Shown here: in pieces, positions 26,659 through 49,200 of the stretch
Numbering within the stretch: the first letter of the stretch is position 1
Layout: each line of letters begins with the position of its first letter
DNA from: an uncultured cyanobacterium
GTDB taxonomy: Bacteria > Cyanobacteriota > Cyanobacteriia > Cyanobacteriales > CAWUOF01
Reading direction: 5' to 3'
Assembly (NCBI GenBank): GCA_963744145.1
Contig: CAVUSO010000001.1
Location: 2,784,001-2,848,000, forward strand
DNA: 64,000 nucleotides
The notes under the pieces: generated by a model
The model's database searches: none
Told to the model about the DNA's origin: nothing
The model's input: only the letters and a program-made list of their open reading frames with translations
Position numbers and translations under genes: made by a program

Positions 26659-26667
26659 CGTAGATGA

Positions 26668-30860: not shown

Positions 30861-33800
30861 TTAACGCAAACCAGAACAGATAAAAGCAGCCCAATAAAAA
30901 GGTGAGGCAAAGGGAAATTCTTGGCGGCATAAAATTTTCAGGTTTTGGGTTATTTGGTAAACCTTTTCGCCGATCTTATTCCACTCTTTATATTCTTCAT
31001 CCCATTGTTGATACTCAGGTGTTCCTTTAACTAATCTTTTGCGATTTTGATCAGCATTCTTGAGCTTTTCTGCTACTTGTTGCCGTTGCTTTTGTAAATA
31101 AGTTTCGAGTTCAGATTTGTACTCAGTATCTAGAGTTGTTCCTGGTAGGGTGCGAAGTTTGATTTGCGCTTGTTGGAGTGCTTCAGGACGATTTAAACCT
31201 TGTTGGCGATACTGATAATAAAAGATGGAAAATAAGGCAGTAGCTAAATCATCGACTGACCACAAGGTACTGACCACACTTCGCGCTCCAGCACATAAAA
31301 AGCCAGTTGATAATGATAAAATATCATCAGTAATCTGAGCTAAAGCGAGGTGCGTTTCGCAACAGGAAAGAAACAGATCAGAGAGATGAGGAAGTCGAAA
31401 ACCGGGGGTCATTATTTGACCTAAAGTAATATTACCATCGGCAAGTATGAGCCGGGATTCTAAGGGACTATCCAATCGTGATGAAGCGTGATGGCTCGAA
31501 TGTAATACTTGCACTTGTTTAGCCAGTTGGCGATAATTGCTCACGGTAGCTTGACTGCGACCTTTTAAGCGTTGATTTTCTGGAATCTGGTATAAATTAG
31601 CGATTTTTTCGCATTCAAATTCTACACTGGGTAATGTGCCATCGGGGTTTTCTACTAGACCATAATTAATTTTAGAAAGTTGGGGACGTTGTTGGCAATA
31701 TTGCAATATTTGACTACTGGGAACATAGCGAATGCGGAATTGATCACCTAAGTGTGGGGTTGAGATTATTTCACTTTCTCTGTGCAGAGAGTTACTTTGA
31801 ATGGGCAGAGTTAAAGGTAAGGCAGCGAAAGGAATTTGATGCCAAAATAGGTGCGGAATGATCATCAATTCCTCAATGTCACTTAGATAAGTTTTCACTA
31901 AGGTGGTGAGTTGCAGTTTTTCCGCTAATTGCTCCAAAAATTCCGAGATTTTTTCATACCAAGTTCTGTCTTTTTTCCTATTCTGGTAGGAAGTTAGCCA
32001 CTCGTCAATAACTAACTCGCGCAAAGTTTGATAGCCAAATCCTTTACAAGTATGTAATTGGGGTGATTGATCTTTGTAGATGATAAAAATGTGAGTGTCG
32101 TTGTGAGTAATAAAGAAATTGAGAATAGCTGTATGAGGTTGTTCGATCAGTTGCTGGATGGTGGCAAAATCTAGAGGTTCGACTTGAATTCCTCCAGCTA
32201 AAACCGGGTCTAAACGGCGGATTTGTTCCCAGACTTGTTGTTTTTGTGCTTCCAAGCTTTCGATATTTACAGTAACAGTTTCTACTACATCACGAGTGAG
32301 AGCAAAACTACCTTTATTGGTTTGCTCGTTCCTAGATTCAGAGTCACCTTGGAAACGTTTTCGTTCAGCATCAATTTGTGCTTGTAGATCATCGTATTGT
32401 TGCAAATATTCCTGCACTTGAAGAGGAATTTCACCTGCTGAGTAGAGGTCATTACTTGCCATTAAATCGACTAGACGTTTAGAACGCGATCGATCTACAT
32501 ATTCAATGGCTTTGTCAATGTTGCCGATATTGATGTAGGATTGAATAATGTTTTCATAAACGTAAATTGAGTCAGCTAAAATCTGTTGACGACTAGCATC
32601 AGTAGTTGACCAACTGCGGATTTTTTCGACAGCAATAATGGCTAATTCGTATCCCTCAATAGCAATATCCCACCAACCTTCTTTGAATGCCAGATCGCCG
32701 AGATTTCGGCCAGATTGGAGACAATCTAATGGTAGAGTGGTAGGAGTACGAAATTCTAAAGCTAATCGGAAACAACGAATCGCCGCATCAATATTCTCCG
32801 CCCGGTTCCCCGTGATTTTGAACCAGTAGGCATTTCCCAGATTATTTTGAGTCATAGCCCATTGTTCGGGGAAATCGGCCCGGGTTAAGACAGCTAAAGC
32901 CAGGTGATAAGCAGCGATCGCCGCATCAATATTCTCCCCCCGGTTCCCCGTGATTTTGGACCTGTAGGCAAGTCCCAGATTAGTTTGAGTATGTGCCCAA
33001 TATTCAGGGAAATCAGCCCGGGTTCTGACTTCTAAAGCCAGTTGAAAAGCAGCGATCGCCGCATCAATATTCTCCCCCCGGTTCCCCGTGATTTTGTCCC
33101 TGTAGGCATTTCCCAGATTATTTTGAGTATGTGCCCATTGTTCGGGGAAATCGGCCCGGGTTCTGACAGCTAAAGCCAGGTGATAAGCAGCGATCGCCGC
33201 ATCAATATTCTCCCCCCGGTTCCCCGTGATTTTGGACCTGTAGGCAAGTCCCAGATTATTTTGAGTTATGGCCCATTGTTCCGGGAAATCGGGCCGGGTT
33301 AAGACAGCTAAAGCCAGTTGAAAAGCAGCGATCGCCGCATCAAGATTCTCCGCCTGGTTCCCCGTGATTTTGAACCAGTAGGCATTTCCCAGATTATTTT
33401 GAGTCATAGCCCAGTCTTCGGGGAAATCGGCCCGGGTTCTGACTTCTAAAGCCAGTTGATAAGCAGCGATCGCCGCATCAATATTCTCCGCCCGGTTCCC
33501 CGTGATTTTGACACAGTAGGCATTTCCCAGATTATTTTGAGTCATAGCCCAGTCTTCGGGGAAATCGGCCCGGGTTAAGACAGCTAAAGCCAGTTGACAA
33601 GCAGTGATCGCCGCATCAATATTCTCCGCCCGGTTCCCCGTGATTTTGGACCTGTAGGCATTTCCCAGATTATTTTGAGTTGTTGCCCATTGTTCGGGGA
33701 AATCGGCCCGGGTTAAGACAGCTAAAGCCAGTTGATAAGCAGCGATCGCCGCATCAATATTCTCCGCTCGGTTCCCCGTGATTTTGTAATAGTAGGTATT

Positions 33801-34280
33801 TCCCAGATTATTTTGAGTTTTTGCCCAGTCTTGAGGAAATTTATCGGGAGTGAAAATAGTTAAAATTAATTCGTAACCAATTATCGCAATTTCTAGGTTA
33901 CTAGCCCTGTTTCCTAAAGGAAACTGTTGAATTAAATTACTGAAATTTCTAAAAACTCTTGCAATATATGGAGCTTGTTCTGGTGCAACTTGCGAGAGAA
34001 TATTTTTAGCCCAATTTGGATACAATTGAACTAAGGTCTGATTGAGTTTATCTCGGTTAGCAGCAATGATGGGATAGACGACTTGTGGGTTGCCATTACT
34101 TTTAGAAGTTGCTTGCAATACTTCACGCAAAAATATAGTATACTTTTCTGGTGATCCTCTGGATGAGGTATTGCCCAGATAAGCGGCTATTTGCTGTGCC
34201 AACTTAGTTAAAAATCTTGTGAGACACTCAAGTAAGGCTTGAATTAAATTGAGATAGTCTTGTCGGCGTTCTTTGTCCAT
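30861..34280 (-). CDS. TPR-repeat CHAT (caspase-like) protease, paralog B (8 near-identical 46-aa repeats)
   Basis: VLHSSHHA, LFLSCCET, GARSVVSTLWSV and YWAAF; same repeat unit as paralog A. Confidence 0.92.
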   Translation of the reverse strand: MDKERRQDYLNLIQALLECLTRFLTKLAQQIAAYLGNTSSRGSPEKYTIFLREVLQATSKSNGNPQVVYPIIAANRDKLNQTLVQLYPNWAKNILSQVAPEQAPYIARVFRNFSNLIQQFPLGNRASNLEIAIIGYELILTIFTPDKFPQDWAKTQNNLGNTYYYKITGNRAENIDAAIAAYQLALAVLTRADFPEQWATTQNNLGNAYRSKITGNRAENIDAAITACQLALAVLTRADFPEDWAMTQNNLGNAYCVKITGNRAENIDAAIAAYQLALEVRTRADFPEDWAMTQNNLGNAYWFKITGNQAENLDAAIAAFQLALAVLTRPDFPEQWAITQNNLGLAYRSKITGNRGENIDAAIAAYHLALAVRTRADFPEQWAHTQNNLGNAYRDKITGNRGENIDAAIAAFQLALEVRTRADFPEYWAHTQTNLGLAYRSKITGNRGENIDAAIAAYHLALAVLTRADFPEQWAMTQNNLGNAYWFKITGNRAENIDAAIRCFRLALEFRTPTTLPLDCLQSGRNLGDLAFKEGWWDIAIEGYELAIIAVEKIRSWSTTDASRQQILADSIYVYENIIQSYINIGNIDKAIEYVDRSRSKRLVDLMASNDLYSAGEIPLQVQEYLQQYDDLQAQIDAERKRFQGDSESRNEQTNKGSFALTRDVVETVTVNIESLEAQKQQVWEQIRRLDPVLAGGIQVEPLDFATIQQLIEQPHTAILNFFITHNDTHIFIIYKDQSPQLHTCKGFGYQTLRELVIDEWLTSYQNRKKDRTWYEKISEFLEQLAEKLQLTTLVKTYLSDIEELMIIPHLFWHQIPFAALPLTLPIQSNSLHRESEIISTPHLGDQFRIRYVPSSQILQYCQQRPQLSKINYGLVENPDGTLPSVEFECEKIANLYQIPENQRLKGRSQATVSNYRQLAKQVQVLHSSHHASSRLDSPLESRLILADGNITLGQIMTPGFRLPHLSDLFLSCCETHLALAQITDDILSLSTGFLCAGARSVVSTLWSVDDLATALFSIFYYQYRQQGLNRPEALQQAQIKLRTLPGTTLDTEYKSELETYLQKQRQQVAEKLKNADQNRKRLVKGTPEYQQWDEEYKEWNKIGEKVYQITQNLKILCRQEFPFASPFYWAAFICSGLR
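32739..33842 (-). repeat. Intragenic tandem array, 8 x 138 bp
   Basis: Eight NNLG/TNLG-containing 46-aa units in the translation. Confidence 0.95.
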
Positions 34281-34370
34281 TCTTATGTTTCCTTGTTCTA
34301 CTAAATAATTAAAATAAAAATTACTGCTTACTAAACTTTACAAACGGCAATCCTAACATTTACAATAATA

Positions 34371-34427
34371 GAAATGCGATCGCGGTCATTAGAAATACGA
34401 TCGCGGTAATTGGAAATGCGATCGCGG
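34371..34427. repeat. 21-bp tandem repeat (x3) built around HIP1
   Basis: GAAATGCGATCGCGGTCATTA / GAAATACGATCGCGGTAATTG / GAAATGCGATCGCGG. Confidence 0.8.
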
Positions 34428-34490
34428 ATAAAATTCGACTGCCCTTCGACTGCGCTCAGGGCACAGACAGGGCAAACTTAGAGAGGTCTA

Positions 34491-35309
34491 TTAATCTGAG
34501 TCATCATCACCCCAAATTTCATCTAACTTGTCTAGCAACTCTTCTGCTAAATCTTGCAGGTCACTTTTGTCGGAATCATCAAACTCTCCTTTATCCATAA
34601 TAGATGTTCCACCTCGGGAAACAAGACCTTTTTCTGTGGGTAGATAACTAGCTAAAAAATCCCCACCAGCATAGCGTCGCTCGTATTTGTCATGGGTGCG
34701 ATATATTCGTTCCAATTGAGCAGCAATCTCTGAAATTGGCTGATCTGCTAATCTTTCCCTCACTTTAATTGCTATTTCGTCCTCACTTTGCAAAAAAATC
34801 TGTGCTGATTCTAAGCGATCGATATAATCAATGAATGTTTCGATTGGTTGAAGACTAGCAATTTCTATTTCTTCTGGTGGTGCGTCTGGATCTATAGTTG
34901 GAGAAAATCCTAACAACTGCACTTCATGTACGGGTGTATCGCCATACGCCCCTTCTGGGAATTGAACACCAATATAGGCAATTCTATCTTCAGTTACCTC
35001 GATCGGTAGAGAAATAACAGTTTCTCCTGGTAAAACCGGACGACATTCTAATTTCCCCAAATTGGGAATCACCAAATCAGCTACATCCAGGATAGCGCGA
35101 ATCCCAGGATGCCAACTTTCACCTTGATTTAAGTCTGTGTCTATTTCCATCCACTCCAGAAAATTATGCACCATATAGACTGCCAAGGTGTTAAAATAAA
35201 CTCGTTTACCTTTTGCTGGGGTGGCTTGTTCTGAGGCAAATTTACGCGCTATTTCCTGATATTGTTGAGGAATAGCAATAGTTAGAAAGGAATTTTCTCT
35301 GGTATTCAT
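34491..35309 (-). CDS. DUF1822 family protein
   Basis: KGKRVYFNTLAVYMVHNFL, DVADLVIPNLGKLECRPV, EDRIAYIGVQF and VQLLGF. Confidence 0.88.
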   Translation of the reverse strand: MNTRENSFLTIAIPQQYQEIARKFASEQATPAKGKRVYFNTLAVYMVHNFLEWMEIDTDLNQGESWHPGIRAILDVADLVIPNLGKLECRPVLPGETVISLPIEVTEDRIAYIGVQFPEGAYGDTPVHEVQLLGFSPTIDPDAPPEEIEIASLQPIETFIDYIDRLESAQIFLQSEDEIAIKVRERLADQPISEIAAQLERIYRTHDKYERRYAGGDFLASYLPTEKGLVSRGGTSIMDKGEFDDSDKSDLQDLAEELLDKLDEIWGDDDSD

Positions 35310-35311
35310 TT

Positions 35312-36142
35312 TTATTGATCCTGTTGGTATCCAAAATTTTTAGCAATCTCTCTCAGAAGAGGTAAACATCTTCTTTTCCAGTGGGAATTGAGAGCTTGGT
35401 AGTTCACATTAAATTCCTTGGCAATATCAGATAGCTTGTCTGGTGGATCTTTTAATTGTAATCTTTTGGCTAGTTCTTGACAGTTAGCGTTAGGGTGTTC
35501 TCTAGGATGACAACTTTGCAGTTCTCCTTCTGGATCTTCCTCTATATACTGCCACAACCTTTGACCAATTTGTTGTGTTTCTTGTTTAATTAGCACATCT
35601 ATACCCGTGGGCTTTTCTGTCGGAACTGTACCTATATAAGTCTCTCCATTTTCACTGGGAAGAGGAACATCTAGAGACAAAGGCTGAATTTTAAAACGGC
35701 GGTAGAGATCAATGATTTTAAACTTGAGAATTTTATTGAACCACGTAACAAAATCTCTGATTATTTCCAAACTAGCATCATTGATATCCAAGTTTCTCTT
35801 TTGGACAAACTTACGGAGATGGCGATCGCTAATTTTTGCTTTTTCTTGATCGCTAATTTTTACTTTGTCTAAAGAAATAGCTTCGAGAGCATCATTGAAA
35901 GCCTCTTGGTAGTTAATTCGTTGGTCGGCTGAGTGGTATATACCTGGAAGTTGCGGGATCAGCGTTAATAGCCCATTCATAGCCTGGTTTTGCTCTGGAC
36001 TACCATTTTGATAGGTAAGCACCTCTTCAATCCGTTGGCGGAGTTGTTCATTCATGCGAGCATTTATGAAAAAAGGTATGCTTTCCATATTATCAAGAAA
36101 GCATCCCTCACTTGCGACTTTACCCATTTTCTTAAGCTGCAT
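35312..36142 (-). CDS. Cyanobacterial sigma-70/ECF-like protein (start may be at about 36055)
   Basis: FVTWFNKILKFKIIDLYR, IEEDPEGELQSCH, and the HTH LSDIAKEFNVNYQALNSHWKRRCLPLL; the type commonly paired with DUF1822. Confidence 0.78.
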   Translation of the reverse strand: MQLKKMGKVASEGCFLDNMESIPFFINARMNEQLRQRIEEVLTYQNGSPEQNQAMNGLLTLIPQLPGIYHSADQRINYQEAFNDALEAISLDKVKISDQEKAKISDRHLRKFVQKRNLDINDASLEIIRDFVTWFNKILKFKIIDLYRRFKIQPLSLDVPLPSENGETYIGTVPTEKPTGIDVLIKQETQQIGQRLWQYIEEDPEGELQSCHPREHPNANCQELAKRLQLKDPPDKLSDIAKEFNVNYQALNSHWKRRCLPLLREIAKNFGYQQDQ

Positions 36143-36561: not shown

Positions 36562-36732
36562 TTTACCCGCTCGCGGAATCAAAGGGTAGTTGAATGGGGC
36601 GATCGCGTAGCGTACCGTAGACATCAGCATTCGGATTTAACATTACAACGGATTCGGTGGTTCATGAAGTACAGTAAGATTTGGCACGAATAGCGATAAG
36701 TTAAAGTTAATTGTGATTGATCTGTGTTGGTT

Positions 36733-36975
36733 GGGCGGGTTTATGATGTTGATCTATTTGTGTCAGAATTAACTGGTGAACCCGCCCCTACAAATCCTGG
36801 TTTATTGTCATCATAAATTCATTGACAATACATTTTTATGATCTCGTAGGGGCGGGTTCACCGCTGAATTTGCCACACACAAATAACTCTTGTGCCGAGC
36901 GCTTGCCCTGAGTTTATCCTGAGCGTAGCCGAAGGGCGTAGTCGAAGGGTAGTCGAGGTATTGATGAACCCGCCC
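36733..36975. repeat. Cluster of REP-like inverted repeats
   Basis: GGGCGGGTTT...AACCCGCCCCTAC and GTAGGGGCGGGTTCA...TGAACCCGCCC, with a nested CCTGAGCGTAGCCGAAGG repeat; a related repeat is at about 34434-34475. Confidence 0.75.
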
Positions 36976-37155
36976 TGCCTCACAGATCACCTTGATGAAC
37001 TCTTGTGTCGAGCCTAATCGAGACATCACTCATCTGGCATTACAGACAATATTGCTATACTTCATAAACAGGTCATAGGTTGTAAACCCGCTCAACCAAA
37101 CGAGATAACTGACTGTACTTCATCAACGGGTCATCCGCTGTAACTGACCTGAAAA

Positions 37156-38607
37156 TTACCCATTTTTTACATCAACATAAATATATTTACCATACTGTTT
37201 AAATTCATCATCTTTATCCAATAAATTTCGGATAGCTTGACGAAGTTCTTTAGCTGGTAATAGACAATCACGCTCGTAATCACTTAAGGTTAAATTCAGA
37301 TCAGGGTACAAAATCTTGAGAAAACCTGCGGCTGATTTAATAATAGCATTTTCATCTCGAATATTGACTGTCTTTTTATCAAAATTAGTATGTTCGATCG
37401 CATATTGTTTAAATTGATTTTCTTGGCGTAAAGATAGCAAGACTTCACCAAAAAAATCCATCTTCAATCCAATTTGAGATGCGATCATATCTTTCTGGAA
37501 TTTGGGAATTTTCCATCCAGGGATAATTCCAGCAAAGCGATCTAAAAAAGCTGTTTCATCCAAAAATTTAGGCAGTGTGGAAAGTAAATTGTTTTCATTA
37601 AAGGGGAGTAGCTGTTCGTTTAATTCGATATTAGCGAGCATGACAAAAGAGCAGTCACTCGCAATATCTTCATATCCTCCCCGATTATAACGACCATTAG
37701 CAAGATAATTTTTTAGTGGACCAATCATTTCACTGGGGTTGTCAAACCTCAGACTCTGAACTTCATCTAGAATTACTGCATCATAACATCCTAGTAAACC
37801 TGTTTCTTTGGTTTTACCATTAAAAAAAAGTACCGCTGGTCCAATTTTTCCGCCACTTACCAATTTGATTTTGTTACTGATATTTTCAAAAAAAAAGCTT
37901 TTACCTGTTCCTTTGGGAGCTAACTCCCAAAGATGGTAATTTGGTTCTACTAATGGTAATAGTCGAGCTAGCACCCAGGTTTTTGCGTCGTAAGTATAAT
38001 CGGGATGCTCTGGATTAAAACCCATTGAACAAAATATTAAATCTCGCCATTCTTCACTACGGAAACGTGAGCGATAATTCGCATATTCTTTCAAATCTAC
38101 ACTAGAACATTGGAATGGATCAAAATCCATTACTTGGATTTTGCCATCATTGTTCATAGTTAAACTTATTTTGCCCCAAATCCCTTGACGGAGTAACCGT
38201 TCATAACGTTCAACTAGATCCTTAGAAATCCGACAGTCATCAAAACTTAAAATAGGAATAGATGCTACGGGTTCGGGAATTTCTTCTTTGGATTTTTGTA
38301 ATTTTACTCGAACTTGCATTGCGGCAATTATTTTAATTACTTCTCCCTGGGTTAGACGGTATTTGAAAACTTCTTTATCGTTTTTGCGTGGGAAAGCTTT
38401 TTGAATAAAATTATCTATTTTTTCCTGTTCATTTGGGCTGAGTTTCCCAGTTCCTGGTACAATTTTATCGAGTAGCCATTCAGCTACGAAACTTGGTACT
38501 CCCGTAGCTGTTAGACCACTAGAAGGTAAGCGAGTTTTATCTATACTCAGAGAGCCAAAAACATCGCGAACAAGAGTGTTGTTATATATTGATTCAGGTA
38601 AATTCAT
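37156..38607 (-). CDS. brxL: BREX BrxL-like AAA+ protein (no C-terminal Lon protease domain)
   Basis: VPSFVAEWLL, RLLPLVEPNY, Walker A ELAPKGTGKS, Walker B VILDEVQ and AFLDRFAGIIPGWKIPK; 483 aa. Confidence 0.85.
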   Translation of the reverse strand: MNLPESIYNNTLVRDVFGSLSIDKTRLPSSGLTATGVPSFVAEWLLDKIVPGTGKLSPNEQEKIDNFIQKAFPRKNDKEVFKYRLTQGEVIKIIAAMQVRVKLQKSKEEIPEPVASIPILSFDDCRISKDLVERYERLLRQGIWGKISLTMNNDGKIQVMDFDPFQCSSVDLKEYANYRSRFRSEEWRDLIFCSMGFNPEHPDYTYDAKTWVLARLLPLVEPNYHLWELAPKGTGKSFFFENISNKIKLVSGGKIGPAVLFFNGKTKETGLLGCYDAVILDEVQSLRFDNPSEMIGPLKNYLANGRYNRGGYEDIASDCSFVMLANIELNEQLLPFNENNLLSTLPKFLDETAFLDRFAGIIPGWKIPKFQKDMIASQIGLKMDFFGEVLLSLRQENQFKQYAIEHTNFDKKTVNIRDENAIIKSAAGFLKILYPDLNLTLSDYERDCLLPAKELRQAIRNLLDKDDEFKQYGKYIYVDVKNG

Positions 38608-40798
38608 CGATATTTAATCTACTTTGGAAAATTCGATTGATCGTAATAGAAGATGTAGGTTCTAGTGAACAAATCCCTAGTTCGGTGTGATTAAAACGAA
38701 ATTGCAACTTACCAGAGAGAAATAGCTGCTTTTCCCTTTGGGAAATTGGCAATTCGGGCCAATTCGCAATTTCTAGGTCTAAGGTAATTTTATCCTGAGC
38801 TGTAATTTCCGCATCAAGATATTTTCCTGCTTTCAAATTCGGTAATTCATTGATATATAAATAAAGGTCTGTAATGGACACGGAGTTGGGATTATCAATA
38901 GTAATTTTTAAGGTTCCTGTTTCGTTGGGTTTACCCTCTCCAGAACAAATAATAATAATTGGGTATCGCTCTACCAAAAGACTCAGTACCGAGACTCCCA
39001 CGACGACTTCTTCCGGAAATAATCCACCATGAGTTCCTATTGCTGATCCATCCGTGGTGTTGAACGAACCTAAACAAGCAGCATCTCTAACTATACTAAC
39101 ATCATGGGGGAGACTAAAGCGACCAGATTCTAAGACAATAAATCTTGGATCATTAGTTTTTCCGATCGCCATTCTACCTTTTGTAGTTATCTCTTGTGGA
39201 GCATCCTTAAGGGTTTCTACTGGACCAATCATTTGTCCATGATCGCTGGAGATCACTATTTTTAAGTTTTCCGGATTAGGGTGTCGTTTGAGACAATATC
39301 CTATTTGTTTAGCAATACCTTCTAAGGTATGGGGACGTTGAACCTGATCAAGATTTTGCCAGTTACGTTCACTATGGTAAATATCATCAAGTTGATTTGT
39401 ATCCCAGCAATAAAGCTGATGAGCATTTTGCTGCAAATCTTGATCAAGATGGTGACGTTGTTTGTCTGTGTAACGTTTACCAATTCCGATTAGAGAAAAA
39501 GCTTTGTTAATTTCCATATTCCAAGATTCATGATCGGGAAGTAATTGAGAGTAAAGACTCCATTTTGCGTATTCCGTTTTAGTTGGCAAAATGCTGAATC
39601 TCCCAGAAATATCTGTGGTAATTTTTAAATTGTTTTCCTCGGTCAATATTTTGAGCAATTCTTGGTGATCTAGCCATCCTAATCCATCAATTACTACCCA
39701 AAAAACAGGATTTTTTTGACAAAGTTCTTTGACTAGATAGGTAACATTGTAGTTTAATGTTGAATGACTAACTGAATCTAGTTTTAATTCTGGGTAATGT
39801 TTAAATAGCCACTCTAGAAAGGTATTTGCTAGACGATCACTTAATCTTTGTCCAATCGGAGATTTTTTGATAGCGATCTCCCACTTACGGAATGGTAAAT
39901 AACTTTTTGTTACCCATTCTAGTACATCTGAGACACTGGTTTCTAGTGCTAGAGGTTGTGGTTGAGATGGTGGTTGTTGATTATTTAAGTCTATCCGCTG
40001 TTGGAAATTCAGGTAAGCAGAAATTTTGGCGATCCTTTCTTTGGTAATCCAGGCTGTTTTTTTGGTTAAGATATTACTAGCGATCGCTGCAATTCGTTTT
40101 ATTCCTGGTTGCTCATGGGGAACGATCGCATCTAAAATTCCTCCTTGAGTTTTGAGGATCTGAGCATTCCAAAAATTGTCAAATTCTGAGGCTAAAATAT
40201 CAGGAATTTCCCGAGGATAAACCGGAAGTTCTTTAATTGGTGGTTCTAATAAACCCAACCACTGTTTGAGAAAAATAAGTTTATCATTGGTCTGGTAATA
40301 ACTAGCTAGTTCTAGATTTAATGATTGAATTTTATTTTGCCAAACTTGCTCAAAAAATTGGTATTTTGATGGTACTTGTATAGATAACCATCGACTTAAA
40401 TGCTCAATTGATGGTGGTTCAAACCACAAATTATCACTATCGGTGGTTATTTCTGATAGAAGATGAGCGATCGCATTATCTACCGGATAAGGCTCAAGTT
40501 CTATCACTAACTCTAAGATTTGTTTATCATCCCATTCTGACGGTAAAGGTAAGGGGTTAAATATTGATGCTAATTTCAACCGAGGGTGTTGTTTTTCTTC
40601 AACGATCGCATCAGTTTTGTCCCAAATGTACAGCCATTCACGAGTCCAATCACACAGTAATTTACCTTGAATCCAGTAAGCGCAGTTATCCTGAAAAAAG
40701 AATTTTAACCATTCTACTTCTGTAGTAATGGGAATATAACCATCAGGGATTTGATAGAGTCTAGTTGGATCTAAAATAACAGATTTAACCCTCGCCAT
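38594..40798 (-). CDS. pglZ: PglZ-domain (alkaline-phosphatase superfamily) protein
   Basis: VVIDGLGW, SILPTKTEYAK, VISSDHG and THGGLFPEEVVV. Confidence 0.85.
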   Translation of the reverse strand: MARVKSVILDPTRLYQIPDGYIPITTEVEWLKFFFQDNCAYWIQGKLLCDWTREWLYIWDKTDAIVEEKQHPRLKLASIFNPLPLPSEWDDKQILELVIELEPYPVDNAIAHLLSEITTDSDNLWFEPPSIEHLSRWLSIQVPSKYQFFEQVWQNKIQSLNLELASYYQTNDKLIFLKQWLGLLEPPIKELPVYPREIPDILASEFDNFWNAQILKTQGGILDAIVPHEQPGIKRIAAIASNILTKKTAWITKERIAKISAYLNFQQRIDLNNQQPPSQPQPLALETSVSDVLEWVTKSYLPFRKWEIAIKKSPIGQRLSDRLANTFLEWLFKHYPELKLDSVSHSTLNYNVTYLVKELCQKNPVFWVVIDGLGWLDHQELLKILTEENNLKITTDISGRFSILPTKTEYAKWSLYSQLLPDHESWNMEINKAFSLIGIGKRYTDKQRHHLDQDLQQNAHQLYCWDTNQLDDIYHSERNWQNLDQVQRPHTLEGIAKQIGYCLKRHPNPENLKIVISSDHGQMIGPVETLKDAPQEITTKGRMAIGKTNDPRFIVLESGRFSLPHDVSIVRDAACLGSFNTTDGSAIGTHGGLFPEEVVVGVSVLSLLVERYPIIIICSGEGKPNETGTLKITIDNPNSVSITDLYLYINELPNLKAGKYLDAEITAQDKITLDLEIANWPELPISQREKQLFLSGKLQFRFNHTELGICSLEPTSSITINRIFQSRLNIDEFT

Positions 40799-40815
40799 AA
40801 ATCAATCAAAACCCC

Positions 40816-43800
40816 TTAATTTGGCAAATATTCTTTGAGTAGCTCATAGACACTGAGTTTTTCTTCAGGTGGGAGTTTATCAAACAGCTCAATTATTTGA
40901 TTAGCTCGATTTTCTTTTTTCTTTTCTTCACTTTCTTCCTGTATTTTTTGATTATCTGGATTATAATGTGAAGGATTTGTTCTTACTTTTCCTTGACTTA
41001 CTTGACTAATTGGTTGTGATATATTAGCATTATCTTGCAGTTTTCTTAACTCTTCTATTCTTTGATGAACAACTTTTTGAGAATCATTTAATTTTTCAAT
41101 TAAATAAGCTAAATTTGGAATTTTCTTAATATATTCAAGATATTGTTTTAATTCAACTTCATAAGCACCACAATCTTTTTCTGTATTTAGAAATTTAGCG
41201 CGTTGAGTTAATTGGTTAATAATTAGCTCAATTTTACCCATTACCATTTCTAAAGCTTTAGATTGGCGATCGCGTTGCTGCTGACTGGGAGTGACATTAA
41301 TAGTTCCTGAAATCAGTACAATTGCTGGGGGTTGACCTAGGGATCTGTAAATATTTACTAATTCCGCAATTCCAGAATTAGGGTCTAGAGTTTCTGCTTT
41401 TTTTATGGATTTAAACCATGTGTCAATTTTTTTTATTCCATCTTGTAGTTGTTTTTGCTTTTCCTTAATTTCACTAATTTTTTGGCTATCAGTATTTCCT
41501 AGCTTTAAAAAAACATCAATCTGGTCAATATACTTTTCGGCACTATCGAAATCTACAGAATCGGGAATTTCTGGATAGGGAGACGGTTGACGACGAATTA
41601 ATTCAGGTTTAGTCGTCAGTATCCATTTGTTCACAAACTCTTTCGGTTTATCAAGGATATTCGTATTTGCCCAATCATTGATTGGTTTTATTTGTATTGA
41701 AATTTGCTCGGTTTTATTTTGAGCAATTCCAAAACGCCCTCTTAAATAAATTTCATTACGGTGATAAGCAAGCCATGCGGTAAAAAGGATAGTAAAGGTA
41801 AACTCGTTATAACCATAGGGTGGACTGGATAATTTATCCCAAATTGTAGCAATATAAACCGATTTTTCCTCATATTTACTACCCAATTTAGTCATTTTGG
41901 AAATTTCATCCCAAGCGGAGCGAACTTTCTGATTATTTGGCTCTTGGACTAAATATTTTTTAGAGGTTTTTTTGAGCAATCCCCAAGCAGAAACAAAAAT
42001 CGGGTCAATTAAGTTATTGTACTCTTTACCAGGTAAATTTTCAGATAAAGTATCTAGTAAAAGCTGTTTAGCAACAAATCCGAGAATTTTTGTTCCCGAT
42101 GAACTTTTTAGTGCGATCTTATCTATTTTTTCAACAGGTGGAACCAGTGAGTAAAGTTCTTGTAATAAAGCGCTAACCAGACGTTCTGGTTTTTTCCGGT
42201 CAGCTAAAGGTAGTTTTTGACTACCATAACTATGATAAGTACAGTTGTCAAAAATCTTTTTCAATCCTTGGTCTATTTGCTGTTGGATCTGTTCTGTAAA
42301 TTGGGAAAAAGCTTCACCATAGTTTTGCTTTTGGGCTGAAGTTTTCTCATTCAACTTATCCCGCTTGAGCAGCAAATGAGCAATATCCATAGCTCCTTGC
42401 TGAGGAATTGCTACAGAGATTTGAGAACGGATAGAAGATTCGATCAGTAGTTGATCAATTTCGTCACGAAGTGGTTTTAATTCTGTTTCTGTTTCTGCCA
42501 AAACATAAGCAAATATGCCTTTTGCTGGGGTTTCTTGTAAAGTTTTATCTCTTAATAAAGCTTTTTGAAATCCATTAATCGAATAGATTTTATACTCAAA
42601 TTGCCACTCATCGCTAATTAATTTGTTTTGGTCTACAAATTCCATAGCAGTAATTGTAGTCGCTTTGAAATATTCTTCTAGATGTTCTCGGCAATAAATT
42701 AAAACTTGATCAATGGTAGGCTTTTTTCTATTATAATATTTATCTTCTGCTAGTTCCTTGTCTATTTCTTGCTCTAGGTCTAGAATACTAAATCCGGAGT
42801 AGAAACTATAGGTGTTATTAGCAAGTTTGTATATAGCTCGTCTATTATTACAAAGTTGGTCGAGAGCAATTTTAACTTTCATTTCCGATAAACCAGTTAA
42901 AACACTCAATATCTCTTCATGTTTTTCACCGTCTGGTTTAGTTAGTTTGCTACCACTAATATAAAATAAGAAGATGGCTTTTAACAAGGTAATTTCTTCA
43001 CTTGAAGCTGCTCCAATTACTGAATCAAAAGCTTTTTTATAATCTGTGTATTTGGAGTGATTAGAAAAATTATCAATAAAAGCGTCAACCAGTACCACTG
43101 GACGAATATAGTTGAGTTTTCCTTCGATTTCTACTGGCTCATTTTGAATAAAGTTTCTGACATCATACTTAACAAACTGAATCGCTGTACGTCCTTGGGT
43201 AAAGTCCAAATTACAAAGCAGATAAGCGGTGAGAGGATGGAGGGGAAAACATTTGGAAGCAAAATCATGATGGAATTTTTTAAAATCCCTTTTTCCTTCG
43301 CGATAAAAGGTAATTCGTTTCTCACAAGCAGTTCTACTTTCATCTAATAAAGTGCTATTCCATCGATCGCGAAACTCTTCCCAAACTGTGGGATTTTCCT
43401 GAACAATTAACTTAGAAAAAACTAACTCTAAACTAGAAACAGGTTCATAGGTACTGCGACTCAATTCCAGCCGAGAAATTAATTTTTTGTAACTTTCTAT
43501 TTCTTTAAAATTGCGGGGAACTGCGGCTGCATTTGATGGTTTAATTTGAGTGAAACTGATCAGGGCAATTCGTCCCTTGTGGTTTTCACAAAAATTAGTT
43601 ATATTTTGCAAAGCCATTCCTCCCGCTGTTGCAGGGTTGCTTGCCCAATTTTGTAGATAAGCATTAAGTTCATCTAACAAAATTAAAATCCCTGCAAACT
43701 GGGGATTTTTTCCAGAGCAAAGCTTTTTGAGCAAATCTTCAAGAATATCCTCTAAGTCTAAATTTGCTTCAAAATTAATTGCATATCCACCGATCGTAAA

Positions 43801-44475
43801 TTGACGACTAATATCGATGACTGTAGGAATAACGTGATAGTTATCATGTCGCAATAACTCAATCATCGATTCGATATCACCATAAGGATTGTCGATCTTT
43901 TTTAAATATTTTTCAGCTATTGCAAGCTGTTCAGTATCCAGTCTTTCCAAAAATTGTAGGGGTTCACTGCAAAATCGCTGGGCAATAGAACCACTCACTC
44001 CTTCCGTTTCTAGGGTTTGACGTAAAGAGCGCAGAAAATTCTGTTTCAGATCACCGCGATCGCCACTTAAACAGATCACTAAATGTTTTGGATTTCGTTG
44101 TTTATAAGCTTGTAAATCTGCTAAAATTGCCGGATATTCAGAAGTAGCTAACCGGATTTGCTCTAAAGTTCCCTGCACTTCTTTACTTTCATAAGGCTGT
44201 TTAAAAAAGTTGGCCAGGACTAACCCAAAGTGAGATTTTCCTTTGCCATAGTCTTGAACTAAGAGGTGAACATTTGGCTCATTTTGACTATGGTAACTAC
44301 GCCGGACAGCATCAAGAACTCCCACCGTCGATGATTTTAGATTTTTCTGATCATAATTAAACACAAATCCTTGACAAAGCTTTAAATTTTTCTCCTGATC
44401 TGCGATCATATCGAAATTGACAGCATCAGCTAATAGGGCAGTTTCATTAATTCGGACTAAATTATTTAGTTTCAT
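40816..44475 (-). CDS. BrxC/SspC-like large P-loop ATPase
   Basis: Walker A variant QDYGKGKSH, Walker B LILLDEL, CFPLHPLTAYLL and LSSPPYG; coiled-coil C-terminus; 1219 aa. Confidence 0.8.
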   Translation of the reverse strand: MKLNNLVRINETALLADAVNFDMIADQEKNLKLCQGFVFNYDQKNLKSSTVGVLDAVRRSYHSQNEPNVHLLVQDYGKGKSHFGLVLANFFKQPYESKEVQGTLEQIRLATSEYPAILADLQAYKQRNPKHLVICLSGDRGDLKQNFLRSLRQTLETEGVSGSIAQRFCSEPLQFLERLDTEQLAIAEKYLKKIDNPYGDIESMIELLRHDNYHVIPTVIDISRQFTIGGYAINFEANLDLEDILEDLLKKLCSGKNPQFAGILILLDELNAYLQNWASNPATAGGMALQNITNFCENHKGRIALISFTQIKPSNAAAVPRNFKEIESYKKLISRLELSRSTYEPVSSLELVFSKLIVQENPTVWEEFRDRWNSTLLDESRTACEKRITFYREGKRDFKKFHHDFASKCFPLHPLTAYLLCNLDFTQGRTAIQFVKYDVRNFIQNEPVEIEGKLNYIRPVVLVDAFIDNFSNHSKYTDYKKAFDSVIGAASSEEITLLKAIFLFYISGSKLTKPDGEKHEEILSVLTGLSEMKVKIALDQLCNNRRAIYKLANNTYSFYSGFSILDLEQEIDKELAEDKYYNRKKPTIDQVLIYCREHLEEYFKATTITAMEFVDQNKLISDEWQFEYKIYSINGFQKALLRDKTLQETPAKGIFAYVLAETETELKPLRDEIDQLLIESSIRSQISVAIPQQGAMDIAHLLLKRDKLNEKTSAQKQNYGEAFSQFTEQIQQQIDQGLKKIFDNCTYHSYGSQKLPLADRKKPERLVSALLQELYSLVPPVEKIDKIALKSSSGTKILGFVAKQLLLDTLSENLPGKEYNNLIDPIFVSAWGLLKKTSKKYLVQEPNNQKVRSAWDEISKMTKLGSKYEEKSVYIATIWDKLSSPPYGYNEFTFTILFTAWLAYHRNEIYLRGRFGIAQNKTEQISIQIKPINDWANTNILDKPKEFVNKWILTTKPELIRRQPSPYPEIPDSVDFDSAEKYIDQIDVFLKLGNTDSQKISEIKEKQKQLQDGIKKIDTWFKSIKKAETLDPNSGIAELVNIYRSLGQPPAIVLISGTINVTPSQQQRDRQSKALEMVMGKIELIINQLTQRAKFLNTEKDCGAYEVELKQYLEYIKKIPNLAYLIEKLNDSQKVVHQRIEELRKLQDNANISQPISQVSQGKVRTNPSHYNPDNQKIQEESEEKKKENRANQIIELFDKLPPEEKLSVYELLKEYLPN

Positions 44476-44499
44476 TTGATGGACCTGATTATCAATAAA

Positions 44500-44928
44500 T
44501 TAAATATGAAAAACTCGCTGACGCGGCCAATTTAGTGGTAGAACTTTAGCTGGCAACAAAATCCAAAGCACTGCTTCTAAATGTCGCAGTTCTGATAATT
44601 TTTGCCAAAACAATTCCATCGGAAATGTAGATTGAACAGATAAATAAGTAATCAGATAATCTAACTTTTCCAGAATTATCGTTCTATTATAGTTGGTTGC
44701 ACAGATTGAGCGAATAGCATTAAATTCTTCGTCTAAGCGCTGATGAAGCACCAAAAATTGGTGAGAGCTGAGACGAGTGAGTAAGTTTTGCCGATAGCTA
44801 ACCCGTATAGCTTTATTATCACATAAAAGAGACAATAAATCTACCTCCGTAGGATTGTCCCATAGCAAAAGATGGGGACGATCCTCTGGTTTTGCGTCTG
44901 GAAGTTTCAGATTAGGGTTGATTTGCAT
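44500..44928 (-). CDS. Small hypothetical protein, possibly a degenerate P-loop protein (BrxB/BrxF-like by size and position)
   Basis: 142 aa; overlaps the DUF4007 stop and precedes the ATPase; IILEKLDYL resembles a decayed Walker B. Confidence 0.55.
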   Translation of the reverse strand: MQINPNLKLPDAKPEDRPHLLLWDNPTEVDLLSLLCDNKAIRVSYRQNLLTRLSSHQFLVLHQRLDEEFNAIRSICATNYNRTIILEKLDYLITYLSVQSTFPMELFWQKLSELRHLEAVLWILLPAKVLPLNWPRQRVFHI

Positions 44929-45745
44929 AAGCTTTTTCTAGAAGAGTCAGAGAGTTATCCCACCGACGTACTATTTGAAAAGGGGGAACTGTGCGACGCT
45001 GTTCAATCAGTCCATAGGCTTCCAAATTGTTAAAATGCTCTTGTAAATCATCGGTGCTAATTCCTAAAATAGTCGTTAGTCCCATTGGTTGATCGACAAC
45101 CGCTTTAGTTAACACTGAAGTTTGGGTTTTAAAGTCCCGTTCCCAAAGTTGGGCAAGAAAATAACCGATCATATAAACATTGGGAAGATTAGCGTTACCT
45201 GTTTGATATGTATCATTTTTATTTAATTCAATAAAACGACAAGATGCTAAGGCTTGAGTTTCTGTATAAGCTCGCAAAATATATTTCAATCTTTCTGTAA
45301 TTATTTTTTTAGTTTCTTCAAAAACTGTGGTACTATTTTCGATCAGTTCATTCATAGTAAACTGACGATGCTGTGGTAAAAAACTATGGACAAAATAACA
45401 CCATCCTCCCCAATCAGCCGGATTTTTTGGTAATTGTTTCATGTTTCGTTCCCCAAAACTCAAATAAAAGTGCATCAACCAGTCTGTAATGTTTGTCTGT
45501 AAAAATGAATCTAGTCTTAACACTATTTTACCTTCTGGGGTTGGTCGATTATCTTGAATTAACCCTGCTCGAATTGCCCAGCTTTTGATCTGTCCAACTT
45601 TTGCATTACCTAAACTGGTTCTCTGCATTAAGTTTTCTAAAGTATCATTTAAACCTTTTTCCTCTGTAGCTGTCTGAAGAATTCTGCGGATTTCTTCTTT
45701 TTTGAGAGCGAAATTTCCGTGAAAGTGCATTTTCAAGTTAGCCAT
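44912..45745 (-). CDS. DUF4007 family protein (SspB/BrxA-related)
   Basis: From the ATG at 45745: FHGNFAL, LGNAKVGQIKSWAIRAGLI and TPEGKIVLRLDSFLQTNITDWLMHFYL. The track's extension to 45877 runs through a MITE. Confidence 0.75.
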   Translation of the reverse strand: MANLKMHFHGNFALKKEEIRRILQTATEEKGLNDTLENLMQRTSLGNAKVGQIKSWAIRAGLIQDNRPTPEGKIVLRLDSFLQTNITDWLMHFYLSFGERNMKQLPKNPADWGGWCYFVHSFLPQHRQFTMNELIENSTTVFEETKKIITERLKYILRAYTETQALASCRFIELNKNDTYQTGNANLPNVYMIGYFLAQLWERDFKTQTSVLTKAVVDQPMGLTTILGISTDDLQEHFNNLEAYGLIEQRRTVPPFQIVRRWDNSLTLLEKAYANQP

Positions 45746-45788
45746 AATTATTTGCCGTCTAAATATGTAGATCACTACTATTATATTC

Positions 45789-45922
45789 CAATACAGTTCA
45801 GTTAAGAATATTTTTGGGGATATCGGCAGAAGAAGGGTGAAGCATTCGGATACAATATTACTGGTTTGATCGCTCAATTATCGCCCGAATGCTTCACCCC
45901 TACATTTAACTGAACCGTATTG
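45789..45922. mobile_element. 134-bp MITE with 17-bp TIRs and a perfect 10-bp target duplication
   Basis: TIRs CAATACAGTTCAGTTAA / TTAACTGAACCGTATTG; direct repeat TATTATATTC at 45779-45788 and 45923-45932; internal hairpin GGGTGAAGCATTCGG...CCGAATGCTTCACCC. Confidence 0.92.
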
Positions 45923-46267
45923 TATTATATTCTATTTTTAGTTCTAGCGATCGTTTTCTCTGCCACTTGTTAATATGATCTAATCCAAAGTATCGCAAGT
46001 AACTGAATCACTGGTATGGGGAACCTAAATGAAACATGAACAGAATTTTATCTTTAAGTATAAATACTCAAACTAGAACAATGAGAGAGTGCTTTGCTAG
46101 TTAAGCGCACCATCTTAAATCACTTATAGACAAAATCTGATCTTGAAAGCTAGCAGTTCTAGGCATAAAATAGTTAAGAAACAAAAAAACAGTACAAAAG
46201 ATTGTTTAGGATAATCCTTGCTGTTCTTATAGTTTAGCTTGATTTCGGCTAATGATTAAAACTTGGA

Positions 46268-49200
46268 GTGCCTACCAATATGGACAGTATTATAGACTAC
46301 CAACTAACTGAAAAAATCTACGAAAGTCCTAATTCAATAGTTTATCGAGGCACTGACCAACTCAATAAACAACCAATTATTCTGAAAATTCTTCAGGAAA
46401 ATTACCCTACTCCATCAGAACTAATCCGATATAAACAGGAATATGAAATTACTCGTTGTTTCCATGCCGATCGCATTATTAAAACCTCCGGATTACAGCG
46501 ATATAAGAATAGTTTAATCATCATTTTAGAGGACTTTGGTGGTAAATCTTTAGACCGATTAATATCCGAATACCAGTTTAGCTTAGAAGAAACTCTCACT
46601 ATTGCTATTAAGATTACAGAGGGTTTAGTTGCGATTCATTCTGCTAACATTATCCACAAAGATATTAACCCTAGCAATATAGTCTATAATCCAGAAACTG
46701 GACAACTGAAAATTATTGATTTTGGAATTTCTACCCGTTTATCCCAGGAAAATCAGACAATTAATCATATCAATCAATTAGAAGGAACCTTAGCTTATAT
46801 TGCGCCAGAGCAAACTGGTAGAATGAACCGAGGAATAGATTACCGTAGTGATTTTTATGCTCTGGGTGTCACATTCTATCAAATATTGACCCATCAATTA
46901 CCGTTTCCAACCCATGACCCGATGGAATTAGTCCATTGTCAGATCGCGCAACATCCAAAAAGACCTGATGAACTAATCTCGTCAATTCCCTTAACATTAT
47001 CCAATATCGTCATCAAATTGTTAGCTAAAACTCCAGAGGAACGATACCAAAGTGCTTGGGGAATTAAAGCTGATTTAGAAACCTGTCTGCACCAATTAAA
47101 AACTTTCGGAGAAATTTCTCAATTTTCTTTAGGAAACCAGGATATTTCCAATAAGTTTCATATTTCTCAAAAACTCTACGGTCGAGAACAGGAAATCACT
47201 CAACTATTAAATTCCTTTAAACGAGTTAGTCAAGGTACTACAGAGATGATGCTGGTTTCTGGTTATTCAGGAATCGGTAAATCTGTTTTGGTCAATGAAA
47301 TTCACAAACCGATTACTAAACAACGAGGATATTTTATTAATGGCAAATTTGACCAGTTGCAGAGGGATATTCCCTATGCAGCAATTACTCAGGCTTTTCA
47401 AGATCTAATTCGTCAACTTCTGAGTGAACCGGAATCAATCCTAGAAACTTGGAAAGAGAAAATATTATCAGCATTGGGGAATAATGGTCAAATTATCATT
47501 GATATTATCCCTGGTCTGGAAAAAATTATCGGTAAACAGCCGGAAGTTGAACAACTAGGAGCAAAAGAAACTCAAAATCGGTTCAAATTATTATTTGAAA
47601 AATTTATCGGCGTTTTTAGTCAAAAAGAACACCCCTTAGTTATCTTCCTCGATGATTTACAGTGGGCAAATCTACCATCTTTAAATTTAATTGAGGGATT
47701 AATAACTAATGCTAATCAGCAATATTTATTGATGATCGGAGCATATCGCGATAATGAAGTTAGTCCTGTTCATCCTTTAATGCACACCTTAGCACAACTT
47801 AGAAAGGTAGAAGCTACAGTCAATCAAATTATCCTACAACCATTAAAAATCAGCCAGATTAACTTATTAATTGCTGATACCTTAAGTTGCTCAATAGAAG
47901 ATGCAAAACCTTTAGCAGAGCTAGTAGCCAAAAAAACTGGTGGTAATCCTTTTTTTGTCAACCAATTACTCCAAACATTGTACCAAGAAAACCTCTTAGT
48001 ATTTAATCCGCCACAATTTTTAATAGCTCAGGGAGAAAATAAAGAGAAATTTTGGCAGTGGGATATTGACCAAATTGAAAAAATCGGCATAACTGATAAT
48101 GTAGTTGATTTAATGGTTAGGAAAATTGGAAAGCTGGATGAAAACACCCAGAATATTTTAAAATTAGCTGCTTGTATTGGCAACCAATTTAATTTAGAAA
48201 TTCTTGCTGTTGTTAATCGAAAATCTCAAATATTTACTGCTCAAGAACTACAACCAGCACTTGCTGAAGGATTGATTGTTCCCCTAAATAATGACTATAA
48301 ATTACCCTTGCTATGGAGTCAGGAGGAAATATCAAGTGAAAGCTCATCTGTTTTTATTCCCAAATATCCTGAGTCTATTCCCTATAAATTTTTACATGAC
48401 CGAGTCCAGCAAGCTGCTTATATTCTCATTAGAGAAGAAGAGAAAAAAGTTGTTCATCTGCAAATAGGTCGTCTGCTACTGAAAAATACTCAAGCAGATA
48501 AATTAGAAGAAAATCTTTTTCAAATTACTAATCAACTTAACGAAGGAGCAGAGTTAACTACTGACCAATTAGAGCGAGATGAGTTAGCTATATTAAATCT
48601 TAAAGCTGGTAAAAAATCTAAAGCATCAACCGCCTATAAACCAGCTCTCAGATATTTGGAAACTGGCTTAAGTCTATTAGCATTTAATAGCTGGAATGAC
48701 CAATATAAATTGACCTGGGAATTACAGATAGAGACTTTAGAACTGCTTTACTTAAATACTAAATTTAAGGAATTTGAAGAGCGAGCAGAAATGCTGCTGG
48801 AACAAGCAAAAGAGATCCTTGATCAAGCTAAGGTAACTCAGTTAAAAATAATATACTGTTATACAATATTTAAGCCTGATCAGGCAATAGATATCGCCCT
48901 TAAAGCTGTCCTAGAACTGGGAATAAATATCTCTCAGGAATCCAGTGACATCGAAAAGAGAATTGAGCAACAACAAGAATTTATTCTATCATTTTTGCAA
49001 TCAAAAAAGATTGAGGATTTAGCTGATTTACCGCTCATGACCGATCAAACTAAAATAGCTGCAACCTCAATCTTACACCGGATTCTTACAGCTACAAATA
49101 CAACAAATTTTTCTTTATATATTGAGGTAATGTTTACCATACTTAATCTCTATATCAGCTCTGGAAATTCTCCTAACGCAGCTTGTATATATGCTACTTA

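Follow-up and report, generated by a model that had tools for sequence, protein, structure and literature searches.

INTRODUCTION

Among the described systems closest to the gene cassette reported here are bacteriophage exclusion (BREX) systems of type 4, which passages of Rakesh and Krishnan (PMC12839542) list as a BrxC/SspC ATPase, a phosphoadenosine phosphosulfate (PAPS) reductase, a DUF4007 protein (often fused to the reductase as BrxP), PglZ and a BrxL that has no C-terminal extension. Among the type-4 taxa counted there, the reductase was present in 406 of 457, DUF4007 in 442 of 457 and a cysteine desulfurase in 255 of 457 (56%). According to passages of Yuan et al. 2026 (PMC12914056), BrxP, in effect an SspD-SspB fusion, suffices together with BrxC for writing DNA phosphorothioation (PT) in Bacteroides salyersiae, where PglZ and BrxL are dispensable and heterologous BrxC/SspC swaps did not restore PT. 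The same passages mention in passing cyanobacterial "dndBCD-brxCZL" and "sspBCDB-brxCZL" islands; this paper and a review were all that our literature search on SspB/PglZ or phosphorothioation/BrxL in cyanobacteria turned up. In type-1 BREX, a BrxB:BrxC:PglZ core complex is documented in a passage of PMC13326643, and a resemblance between SspB and BrxA is noted in one of PMC9240713. We here analyze a five-gene cassette lying on the minus strand at positions 37156-45745 of a 64,000-nt stretch of an uncultured cyanobacterium (contig CAVUSO010000001.1, positions 2,784,001 to 2,848,000), and this whole stretch is called the window below.

On the basis of homology and gene order, the five genes are predicted to form the core of a defence system of the BREX type that has no writer and follows the type-1 order minus pglX. 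The reading that we favour, at a probability of roughly 55%, is that the cassette serves as a type-4-BREX-like restriction arm dependent on PT written in trans, and the argument for it is built on synteny and homology.

Comparison with the described systems shows both what is shared and what is peculiar. With type-4 BREX the cassette has in common a DUF4007 protein and a short BrxL, as well as a desulfurase in its relatives, and probably also the ATPase of the BrxC/SspC type and PglZ. It differs in that neither the locus nor any single one of its proteins contains a PAPS-reductase (BrxP) domain, DUF4007 is encoded by a gene of its own, an extra BrxB-like small gene is present, PglZ reaches only 33.2 bits with the NCBIfam model BREX_PglZ_4 (cut-off 140), and the ATPase is nearer to SspC than to BrxC models. 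Type-1 BREX (brxA-brxB-brxC-pglX-pglZ-brxL) has the same gene order, and in the cassette a BrxA-like fold (Z 10.2), an inactive P-loop protein that may correspond to BrxB (Z 6.3), a large ATPase, PglZ and BrxL follow one another; in contrast to type 1, the cassette has neither a PglX methyltransferase nor a Lon-like domain on BrxL, and at the sequence level its resemblance to BrxA, BrxB and BrxC is marginal at most. The difference from the Ssp system (SspABCD) is that the window contains neither SspD nor SspA; both are encoded 1.2 Mb away, where canonical SspB and SspC are found too. Like the PT-dependent restriction partners DndFGH, PbeABCD, SspE and SspFGH, the cassette family sits by PT-writing genes, and some relatives have a GmrSD/SspE-like or HNH_4 protein beside the cassette; the components of those modules are however unrelated, and none of the modules has PglZ or BrxL.

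By gene content, the cassette family is apparently identical to that of the islands mentioned in the passages of Yuan et al. 2026, and our census recovers both island types. The ssp- and dnd-linked brxCZL islands of cyanobacteria are thus already known from that source (PMC12914056), whose passages describe no small gene, no stand-alone form and no slot between sspD and the desulfurase gene. Unlike those islands, the window cassette stands by itself: the ssp operon of the genome is 1.2 Mb and the dnd operon 1.7 Mb away. What is new here is the colinearity including BrxA-like and BrxB-like proteins, the slot logic explained below, and the recurrence of a stand-alone state with writers in trans.

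RESULTS

Five intact genes in the cassette

An earlier note on this DNA, which was made from the sequence alone, had described five co-oriented, intact and tightly coupled open reading frames (ORFs), and the ORF coordinates confirm this description in full. In the direction of transcription, they encode a DUF4007 protein of 277 aa (44912-45745), a protein of 142 aa (44500-44928), an SspC/BrxC-like ATPase of 1219 aa (40816-44475), a PglZ of the alkaline-phosphatase superfamily of 734 aa (38594-40798) and a short BrxL of 483 aa (37156-38607). The junctions are, in order, a 17-nt overlap, a 24-nt gap, a 17-nt gap and a 14-nt overlap; the first gene starts with the ATG at 45745, with an alternative TTG at 45877. 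The catalytic and NTP-binding motifs of the cassette are intact, and the order can be read as BrxA-like, BrxB-like, BrxC-like, PglZ and BrxL.

The first protein belongs to the SspB family, as the earlier note proposed. It matches Pfam PF13182 with 35.4 bits (cut-off 27) and the PADLOC SspB model at 7e-10, and its AlphaFold model, with a predicted local distance difference test score (pLDDT) of 92.3, superposes with VIA-align on the SspB crystal structure 6juf_B at Z 21.1 over 263 residues and on BrxA 7zge_A at Z 10.2 over 179 residues; Foldseek also returned SspB (E 4.5e-9). This fold predicts a BrxA-like DNA-binding protein with tandem helix-turn-helix (HTH)/winged-helix domains. Identity to the canonical SspB of the same genome is just 23% over 183 aa, and the columns invariant across 28 DUF4007 sequences are all retained in the window copy. 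We also searched for longer relatives in which DUF4007 might be fused to a PAPS reductase; one 582-aa protein was found and it carries DUF4007 only, which is weak evidence against such fusions.

The second gene, listed in the earlier note simply as a small ORF, is indeed present and is now read as encoding a conserved P-loop-fold protein lacking Walker A. No Pfam or NCBIfam family matches this 142-aa protein and it contains no Walker A motif G....GK[ST], while an alignment of 30 sequences from relatives has a mean column identity of 48% and its invariant columns are all retained in the window copy. A profile search over 1.84 billion protein representatives gave just 33 relatives at E<=1e-3, of which 26 are stand-alone proteins of 130-170 aa and the remainder mostly shorter pieces. 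Its structural model (pLDDT 89.6) has an alpha/beta fold like that of P-loop NTPases, and the best structural matches by VIA-align are AAA+ domains with Z from 7.5 to 5. In the Acinetobacter BrxC-N:BrxB:PglZ-N complex 9zll, chain G, which we took as BrxB from its 189-aa length, is matched at Z 6.3, with 131 of the 142 residues aligned along the whole chain. This score is tied with those of generic AAA+ hits, so that the BrxB-like reading rests on fold class and gene position; no sequence link to BrxB or to PglZ N-termini was found (best PDB E 0.096, unrelated proteins). The model thus weakly suggests an inactive P-loop protein that is most like BrxB and might be a BrxB-like adaptor.

The ATPase matches the PADLOC SspC model at 6.3e-26, in partial-length matches, and the BrxC model merely at 0.0027, and no Pfam family was found for it. 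A P-loop, GKGKS, is located at residue 79 and a Walker B, LILLDE, at residue 264. Similarity to the canonical SspC of the genome is local only (29% over 73 aa). In 31 related loci whose frame is intact up to pglZ, the ATPase is 1319-1815 aa long, and the difference in length corresponds to a helical stretch rich in Q, E, L, K and R (compare window positions 40816-41300 with the relatives L017, L020 and L023), which precedes the conserved C-terminal motif NQI..LF..LP....LYE.L..YL; the window copy has a short helical C-terminal region.

The fourth protein matches the PADLOC PglZ model PDLC02549 over its full length (1.9e-21, residues 19-699) and is the sole PglZ match in the genome. Columns invariant across 24 homologues, which include D371, T406, T408, D466, D471, H475, H520 and H590, are all retained in the window copy, and the alkaline-phosphatase-type catalytic columns are among them. 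As a separate observation, PglZ of many relatives, such as L025:7475-12241 and L059:7724-12187 (1588 and 1487 aa), carries an N-terminal extension of 750-850 aa with a NERD nuclease and two protein-kinase stretches, a PglW-like arrangement of type-2 BREX. About 14 loci with an intact ATPase frame have a matching gap of about 2.3-3.8 kb ahead of the PglZ match, and the window PglZ is without this extension.

BrxL matches Pfam BrxL_ATPase (338.7 bits) and BrxL_N (85.6 bits), the 449-position short-BrxL model TIGR02688 (443.8 bits, cut-off 329.3) and the PADLOC 482-aa BrxL model (2.8e-133), and consists of an N-terminal DNA-binding region and an MCM-like AAA+ region. Walker A, GTGKS, is at residue 233, and an ILDE stretch resembling Walker B was read from the sequence. 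The earlier note pointed to the lack of a Lon domain. The family scans agree that the window BrxL carries no Lon domain, nor any HKD extension, but this state is the norm in type-4 BREX and has an NCBIfam model of its own, whose cut-off the protein exceeds.

No modification gene in the cassette

When the five proteins were scanned with Pfam, PADLOC and NCBIfam, no domain of a methyltransferase, a PAPS reductase or a cysteine desulfurase was found, and PF01507 and the PADLOC models for BrxP, SspD and DndC gave no match in them or in ORFs flanking the cassette. Likewise, none of the five contains the PP-loop motif SGGKDS, which is present in the SspD and DndC of the genome that served as positive controls. 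Among the other window ORFs of at least 200 aa that we scanned, no DNA methyltransferase domain was detected. The statement of the earlier note that the locus lacks a modification gene is borne out by these results. The note had also considered that one of the five proteins might hide a PAPS-reductase or methyltransferase domain, and no such domain appeared in the scans. We rejected two further hiding places: six ATPase homologues of greater length gave no such domain with Pfam and PADLOC and their extra length is helical, and the folds of the two small proteins are those of a DNA-binding protein and an inactive P-loop protein.

Related loci and their neighbourhoods

PglZ relatives with 45-53% identity were found in nine of 401 sampled genomes of the phylum, the window genome included, all from the same order. 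A large protein library contains 154 clusters of PglZ relatives at E<=1e-10; every organism named there is a cyanobacterium, and the named clusters are mostly labelled "hypothetical protein". When we scanned for related loci, a single PglZ query gave none and a query made from a PglZ alignment gave 79, whose titles are nearly all cyanobacteria, with one Acidobacteriaceae metagenome-assembled genome (MAG) and a few entries of "uncultured bacterium". The full five-gene order is kept in 55 of these 79 loci. Flanks of up to 10 kb were fetched and a tblastn census was taken, with the five cassette proteins, the genome's own SspB, SspC, SspD, DndC, DndD and DndE, two desulfurases, an HNH protein and a GmrSD protein as queries. 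A locus was regarded as informative on two sides when it had the full cassette with at least 900 nt upstream and at least 1300 nt downstream (n=40). The counts given below are not those of independent events, because near-duplicates (many Nostoc MAGs) and four duplicate loci are included.

PT genes, namely sspD, dndE/dndD/dndC or a cysteine desulfurase gene, adjoin the cassette in 31 of the 40 two-side-informative loci, and none was found in the other nine. The concern voiced in the earlier note, that homologous loci might routinely carry a PAPS reductase or methyltransferase, has therefore turned out to be justified as far as PT genes are concerned. On the upstream side of the 40 loci we found sspD in 12, dndE in 16 and neither in 12. 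On the downstream side, where 68 loci are informative, a cysteine desulfurase gene lies within 2 kb in 27 (31 anywhere in view), dndD/dndC in 18 and neither in 19; in 15 loci from several lineages, the desulfurase gene follows brxL after only 3-21 nt. Most of the linked loci follow one of two arrangements, namely sspC-sspD-(GmrSD or HNH)-[cassette]-desulfurase or dndE(-)-[cassette, +]-dndD(-)-dndC(-).

These arrangements bear directly on the role of the cassette. The PT genes appear complete without it (sspC, sspD and the desulfurase gene, or dndCDE) and it is lodged between them, so that a restriction arm is the most economical reading; PglZ and BrxL are moreover not needed for type-4 writing, which is why we read the cassette as the restricting part. 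A desulfurase gene apparently co-transcribed behind brxL is what one would expect if a restriction arm must never be expressed ahead of modification.

The same arrangements can be read differently, as a split type-4 writer, which we consider unlikely. The SspB-like and SspC-like proteins of the cassette would then borrow SspD or DndC and write PT of their own specificity, and PglZ and BrxL would restrict unmarked DNA. The pair would be the unfused counterpart of BrxP and BrxC, the two proteins that, according to the passages of Yuan et al. 2026 (PMC12914056), suffice for PT writing. In favour of this reading, the SspB fold is complete in the DUF4007 protein, and in ssp-linked relatives sspD lies directly 5' of its gene and the desulfurase gene directly 3' of brxL, so the whole reads like sspD-sspB'-...-sspC'-pglZ-brxL-sspA. 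The ssp-linked islands, however, also carry canonical sspC beside sspD (e.g. L033, L054, L067, L070 and L095), and canonical sspB presumably lies further upstream, outside the fetched flank; modification therefore seems complete without the cassette. The genomes of dnd-embedded loci gave no SspD match (G152, G032, G312 and G390), so that the pair would there have to work with DndC, to which it is foreign, and the swaps of BrxC/SspC reported in those passages failed to restore PT in B. salyersiae.

A gene that some relatives have near the cassette encodes a 460-aa protein with HTH_3 and HNH_4 domains. It is directly upstream of the cassette in several relatives (L017:1104-2486 and L020:17666-19063), replaces the DUF4007 gene in L020/L057 and abuts partial sspD matches in L094 and L096. 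The window genome encodes a homologue of part of this protein at G000:C1:253642-254334, far from the window, with 74% identity over 231 aa.

Recurrence of the stand-alone state

We constructed a quick maximum-likelihood tree of PglZ (LG+G4) from 66 rows, namely 65 loci and the window; 14 of the 79 loci were left out for a match shorter than 650 residues or, in L051, a stop. Rows with the ssp- or desulfurase-linked state turn up in all parts of the tree. The stand-alone state occupies seven rows including the window and needs five changes, at least four of which are forced by starred branches. Nearest to the window is the row of L024, with 56% identity, on a contig that breaks off upstream. When eight stand-alone loci were scanned with Pfam, their flanks proved to have mostly metabolic or unassigned genes, for example dxr and a leuA-like gene; L038 has an unlinked type-I hsdM/S pair 2.7 kb away and L032 an HNH_4 gene directly upstream. 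A DndC-sized PAPS reductase was found elsewhere in all five stand-alone genomes tested, and one of them also has an SspD-sized one.

This recurrence is one argument for a modification-independent BREX-like system, in which invaders would be sensed by some other feature and the proximity of PT genes would reflect the clustering of defence islands. The nine of 40 informative loci and the window, where no modification gene adjoins and the neighbours are mostly metabolic or unassigned, fit such a system, as does the repeated origin of this state; a very variable ATPase stretch, and the NERD nuclease and kinases on PglZ of many relatives, are typical of invader sensing. On the other hand, the cassette is inserted among modification-operon genes of two different systems, the desulfurase gene follows brxL at 3-21 nt in the 15 loci of several lineages, and at least one PT writer is present in every cassette genome examined (9/9 and 5/5). 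We thus regard modification independence as rather improbable. Of the two options offered in the earlier note, a modification-independent system and a mark written in trans, it is the less likely one because PT genes stand beside the cassette in 31 of the 40 loci.

Phosphorothioation genes elsewhere in this genome

The option of a mark written in trans had in turn named PT genes elsewhere or host methylation such as at GATC/HIP1; the former part is supported and favoured by the genes described here, and nothing points to the latter. ssp genes specify single-strand PT and dnd genes double-strand PT, and the window genome has both. PADLOC detected canonical SspB (1e-124), SspC (E 0) and SspD (2e-111) at G000:C1:4039931-4045231, where the ssp genes and a desulfurase gene of the island type lie 1.2 Mb from the cassette; this desulfurase (G000:C1:4053972-4055141) is 65% identical to the island type, while other paralogues reach about 39% or less. 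It also detected DndC (5e-193), DndD and DndE at G000:C1:4504471-4508497, 1.7 Mb from the cassette. PF01507 has three matches in the genome, all outside the window: SspD, DndC and a 249-aa frame that is, as judged from size and score, probably of the assimilatory CysH type.

The region between sspD and the desulfurase gene, which houses our cassette in relatives, is not empty in this genome. At G000:C1:4045279-4053444 (L103:280-8445), it holds a different cassette, composed of two GHKL (HATPase_c_3) proteins of 592 and 610 aa, a 119-aa ORF, a ResIII/DEAD helicase of 542 aa, a PLD-like protein of 297 aa and an IS110 transposase. This set is possibly another PT-linked restriction cassette; PADLOC gave weak matches only, to MzaB, PbeA and DrmC. 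The dndCDE genes are contiguous, which means that the dnd insertion site is free of our cassette too. The window cassette therefore occupies a third site, apart from both the ssp island and dndCDE. The suggestion of the earlier note that the locus could be a deletion derivative of its homologues does not hold in a simple form: the cassette is intact, it lies at this third site, and the usual sspD-desulfurase slot is filled by another cassette.

An orphaned remnant, that is, a cassette that was parted from ssp or dnd genes and has ceased to function, in which disruptions have yet to accumulate, would account for several of these features. The window ATPase is the shortest of its family, mobile-looking repeats flank the cassette, the usual slot of the ssp island is filled by the aforementioned different cassette with an IS110 transposase, and some copies in other loci are decayed: L022 is reduced to pglZ, with a TAA, and brxL, the brxL of L019 is broken and frameshifts occur in L049. 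We nevertheless give this explanation a low probability, since all five frames of the window are open and full-length compared with homologues, the invariant columns of the PglZ, small-protein and DUF4007 alignments are kept, and translational coupling between the genes is retained.

DISCUSSION

Proposed working of the cassette

If the cassette is a restriction arm that depends on a PT mark written in trans, DNA would be bound and scanned by the SspB-fold protein and the ATPase, and the small inactive P-loop protein would couple the ATPase to PglZ, as BrxB does in type-1 BREX, perhaps in a complex of the BrxB:BrxC:PglZ type. PglZ, aided by the MCM-like BrxL, would then act on DNA without the host mark. 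The mark would be DNA phosphorothioation produced by sspBCD with its cysteine desulfurase, by dndCDE, or by both, and either of the two writers may serve the cassette from its distant position.

In a more general form of this proposal, the cassette would be an effector arm of the BREX type that is writer-agnostic: brxA'-brxB'-brxC'-pglZ-brxL would be portable as a unit, dock in an ssp or a dnd operon or work at a distance, and read a backbone-sulfur mark written by other genes. We offer this tentatively, as a possible extension that is less probable than the restriction arm as such.

Several points weigh against a PT-dependent restriction arm and should be considered together. The link of the cassette family to PT and phage defence is argued from synteny and homology, and defence genes cluster for reasons besides shared function. 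The dnd-embedded state, one of the two dominant arrangements, corresponds in the PglZ tree to approximately one nested Nostocales clade (16 rows, two changes) and so counts as about one event. Co-occurrence with DndC, seen in nine of nine cassette genomes, was tried as a test of PT dependence and rejected as uninformative, because DndC is found in 110 of the 129 sampled genomes of the window's order. SspD is present in just four of the nine cassette genomes, one copy having stops, so that no single writer is universal. As for the proteins themselves, PglZ stays below the curated cut-offs not only of NCBIfam but also of Pfam (22.6 bits, cut-off 25), the BrxB assignment is weak, with a Z of 6.3 shared with many AAA+ domains and no sequence match, and the window ATPase, at 1219 aa, falls short of the 1319-1815 aa of its family.

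Two observations concern the distribution of the writers in the phylum sample. Outside the window's order, DndC was found in just four of 271 sampled genomes. SspD-like matches occur in 17 genomes of family f35, whose genomes are small (1.7-2.3 Mb), with up to six per genome.

Flanking repeats and neighbouring genes

Repeats bound the operon on both sides, in agreement with the earlier note. Upstream of it, an inverted-repeat element at 45782-45929 (arms 45782-45805 and 45906-45929) resembles a miniature inverted-repeat transposable element and has 370 blastn hits in the 7.7-Mb genome, 271 of them at least 80 nt long. Directly 3' of brxL, positions 36700-37155 are a composite of genome-abundant repeats with 360 blastn hits; this stretch contains an inverted repeat (36767-36791/36846-36870) and a 72-aa ORF for which no family match was found in Pfam, PADLOC or NCBIfam. 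Because such repeats occur hundreds-fold in the genome, they are uninformative about the mobility of the cassette. Base composition also gives no clear signal of foreign DNA: the GC content of the operon is 0.32-0.38, and that of the neighbouring kinase gene is just as low.

This neighbouring gene is divergent (46268-52423) and encodes a 2051-aa Ser/Thr kinase with AAA_16, GAF, HisKA, HATPase and receiver domains; its hits to the PADLOC model PD-T4-6 look like generic kinase-domain matches. Searching for the insertion or empty site by way of this gene was uninformative, as it has 23 matches in its own genome (E<=1e-100), and no close orthologue was found among 20 relatives, the best being 69% identical. 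On the other side of the cassette, the window contains two paralogous sets (18571-23764 and 30861-36142), each with a large TPR and CHAT-domain protein (1447 and 1139 aa) and subsequent proteins of about 270 aa, one of which, after the second set, matches DUF1822. A pair of an AAA ATPase and an S8 subtilase lies at 24160-27678. These sets and this pair look like conflict-system genes, and the cassette may therefore be situated in a defence-rich region.

Biological significance

A natural BREX core without a writer would allow reading to be separated cleanly from writing, and so bears on how BREX discriminates self from non-self and how restriction and modification are coordinated. The occurrence of one cassette family between sspD and a desulfurase gene, between dndD and dndE, or alone could show whether effectors of the PglZ and BrxL type can make use of a phosphorothioate mark whose genes are unlinked. 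Together with the different cassette found between sspD and the desulfurase gene of this genome, it suggests that the sspD-sspA gap is an exchangeable slot for restriction cassettes. A likely role can also be assigned to a family that is mostly annotated as "hypothetical" in cyanobacteria and comprises the 154 protein clusters mentioned above. If the writer-agnostic form of the proposal is true, this would be the first BREX-type system shown to split reader from writer. Many cyanobacteria of this order have dndCDE with no adjoining partner of the dndFGH type detected, and this too would then be explained.

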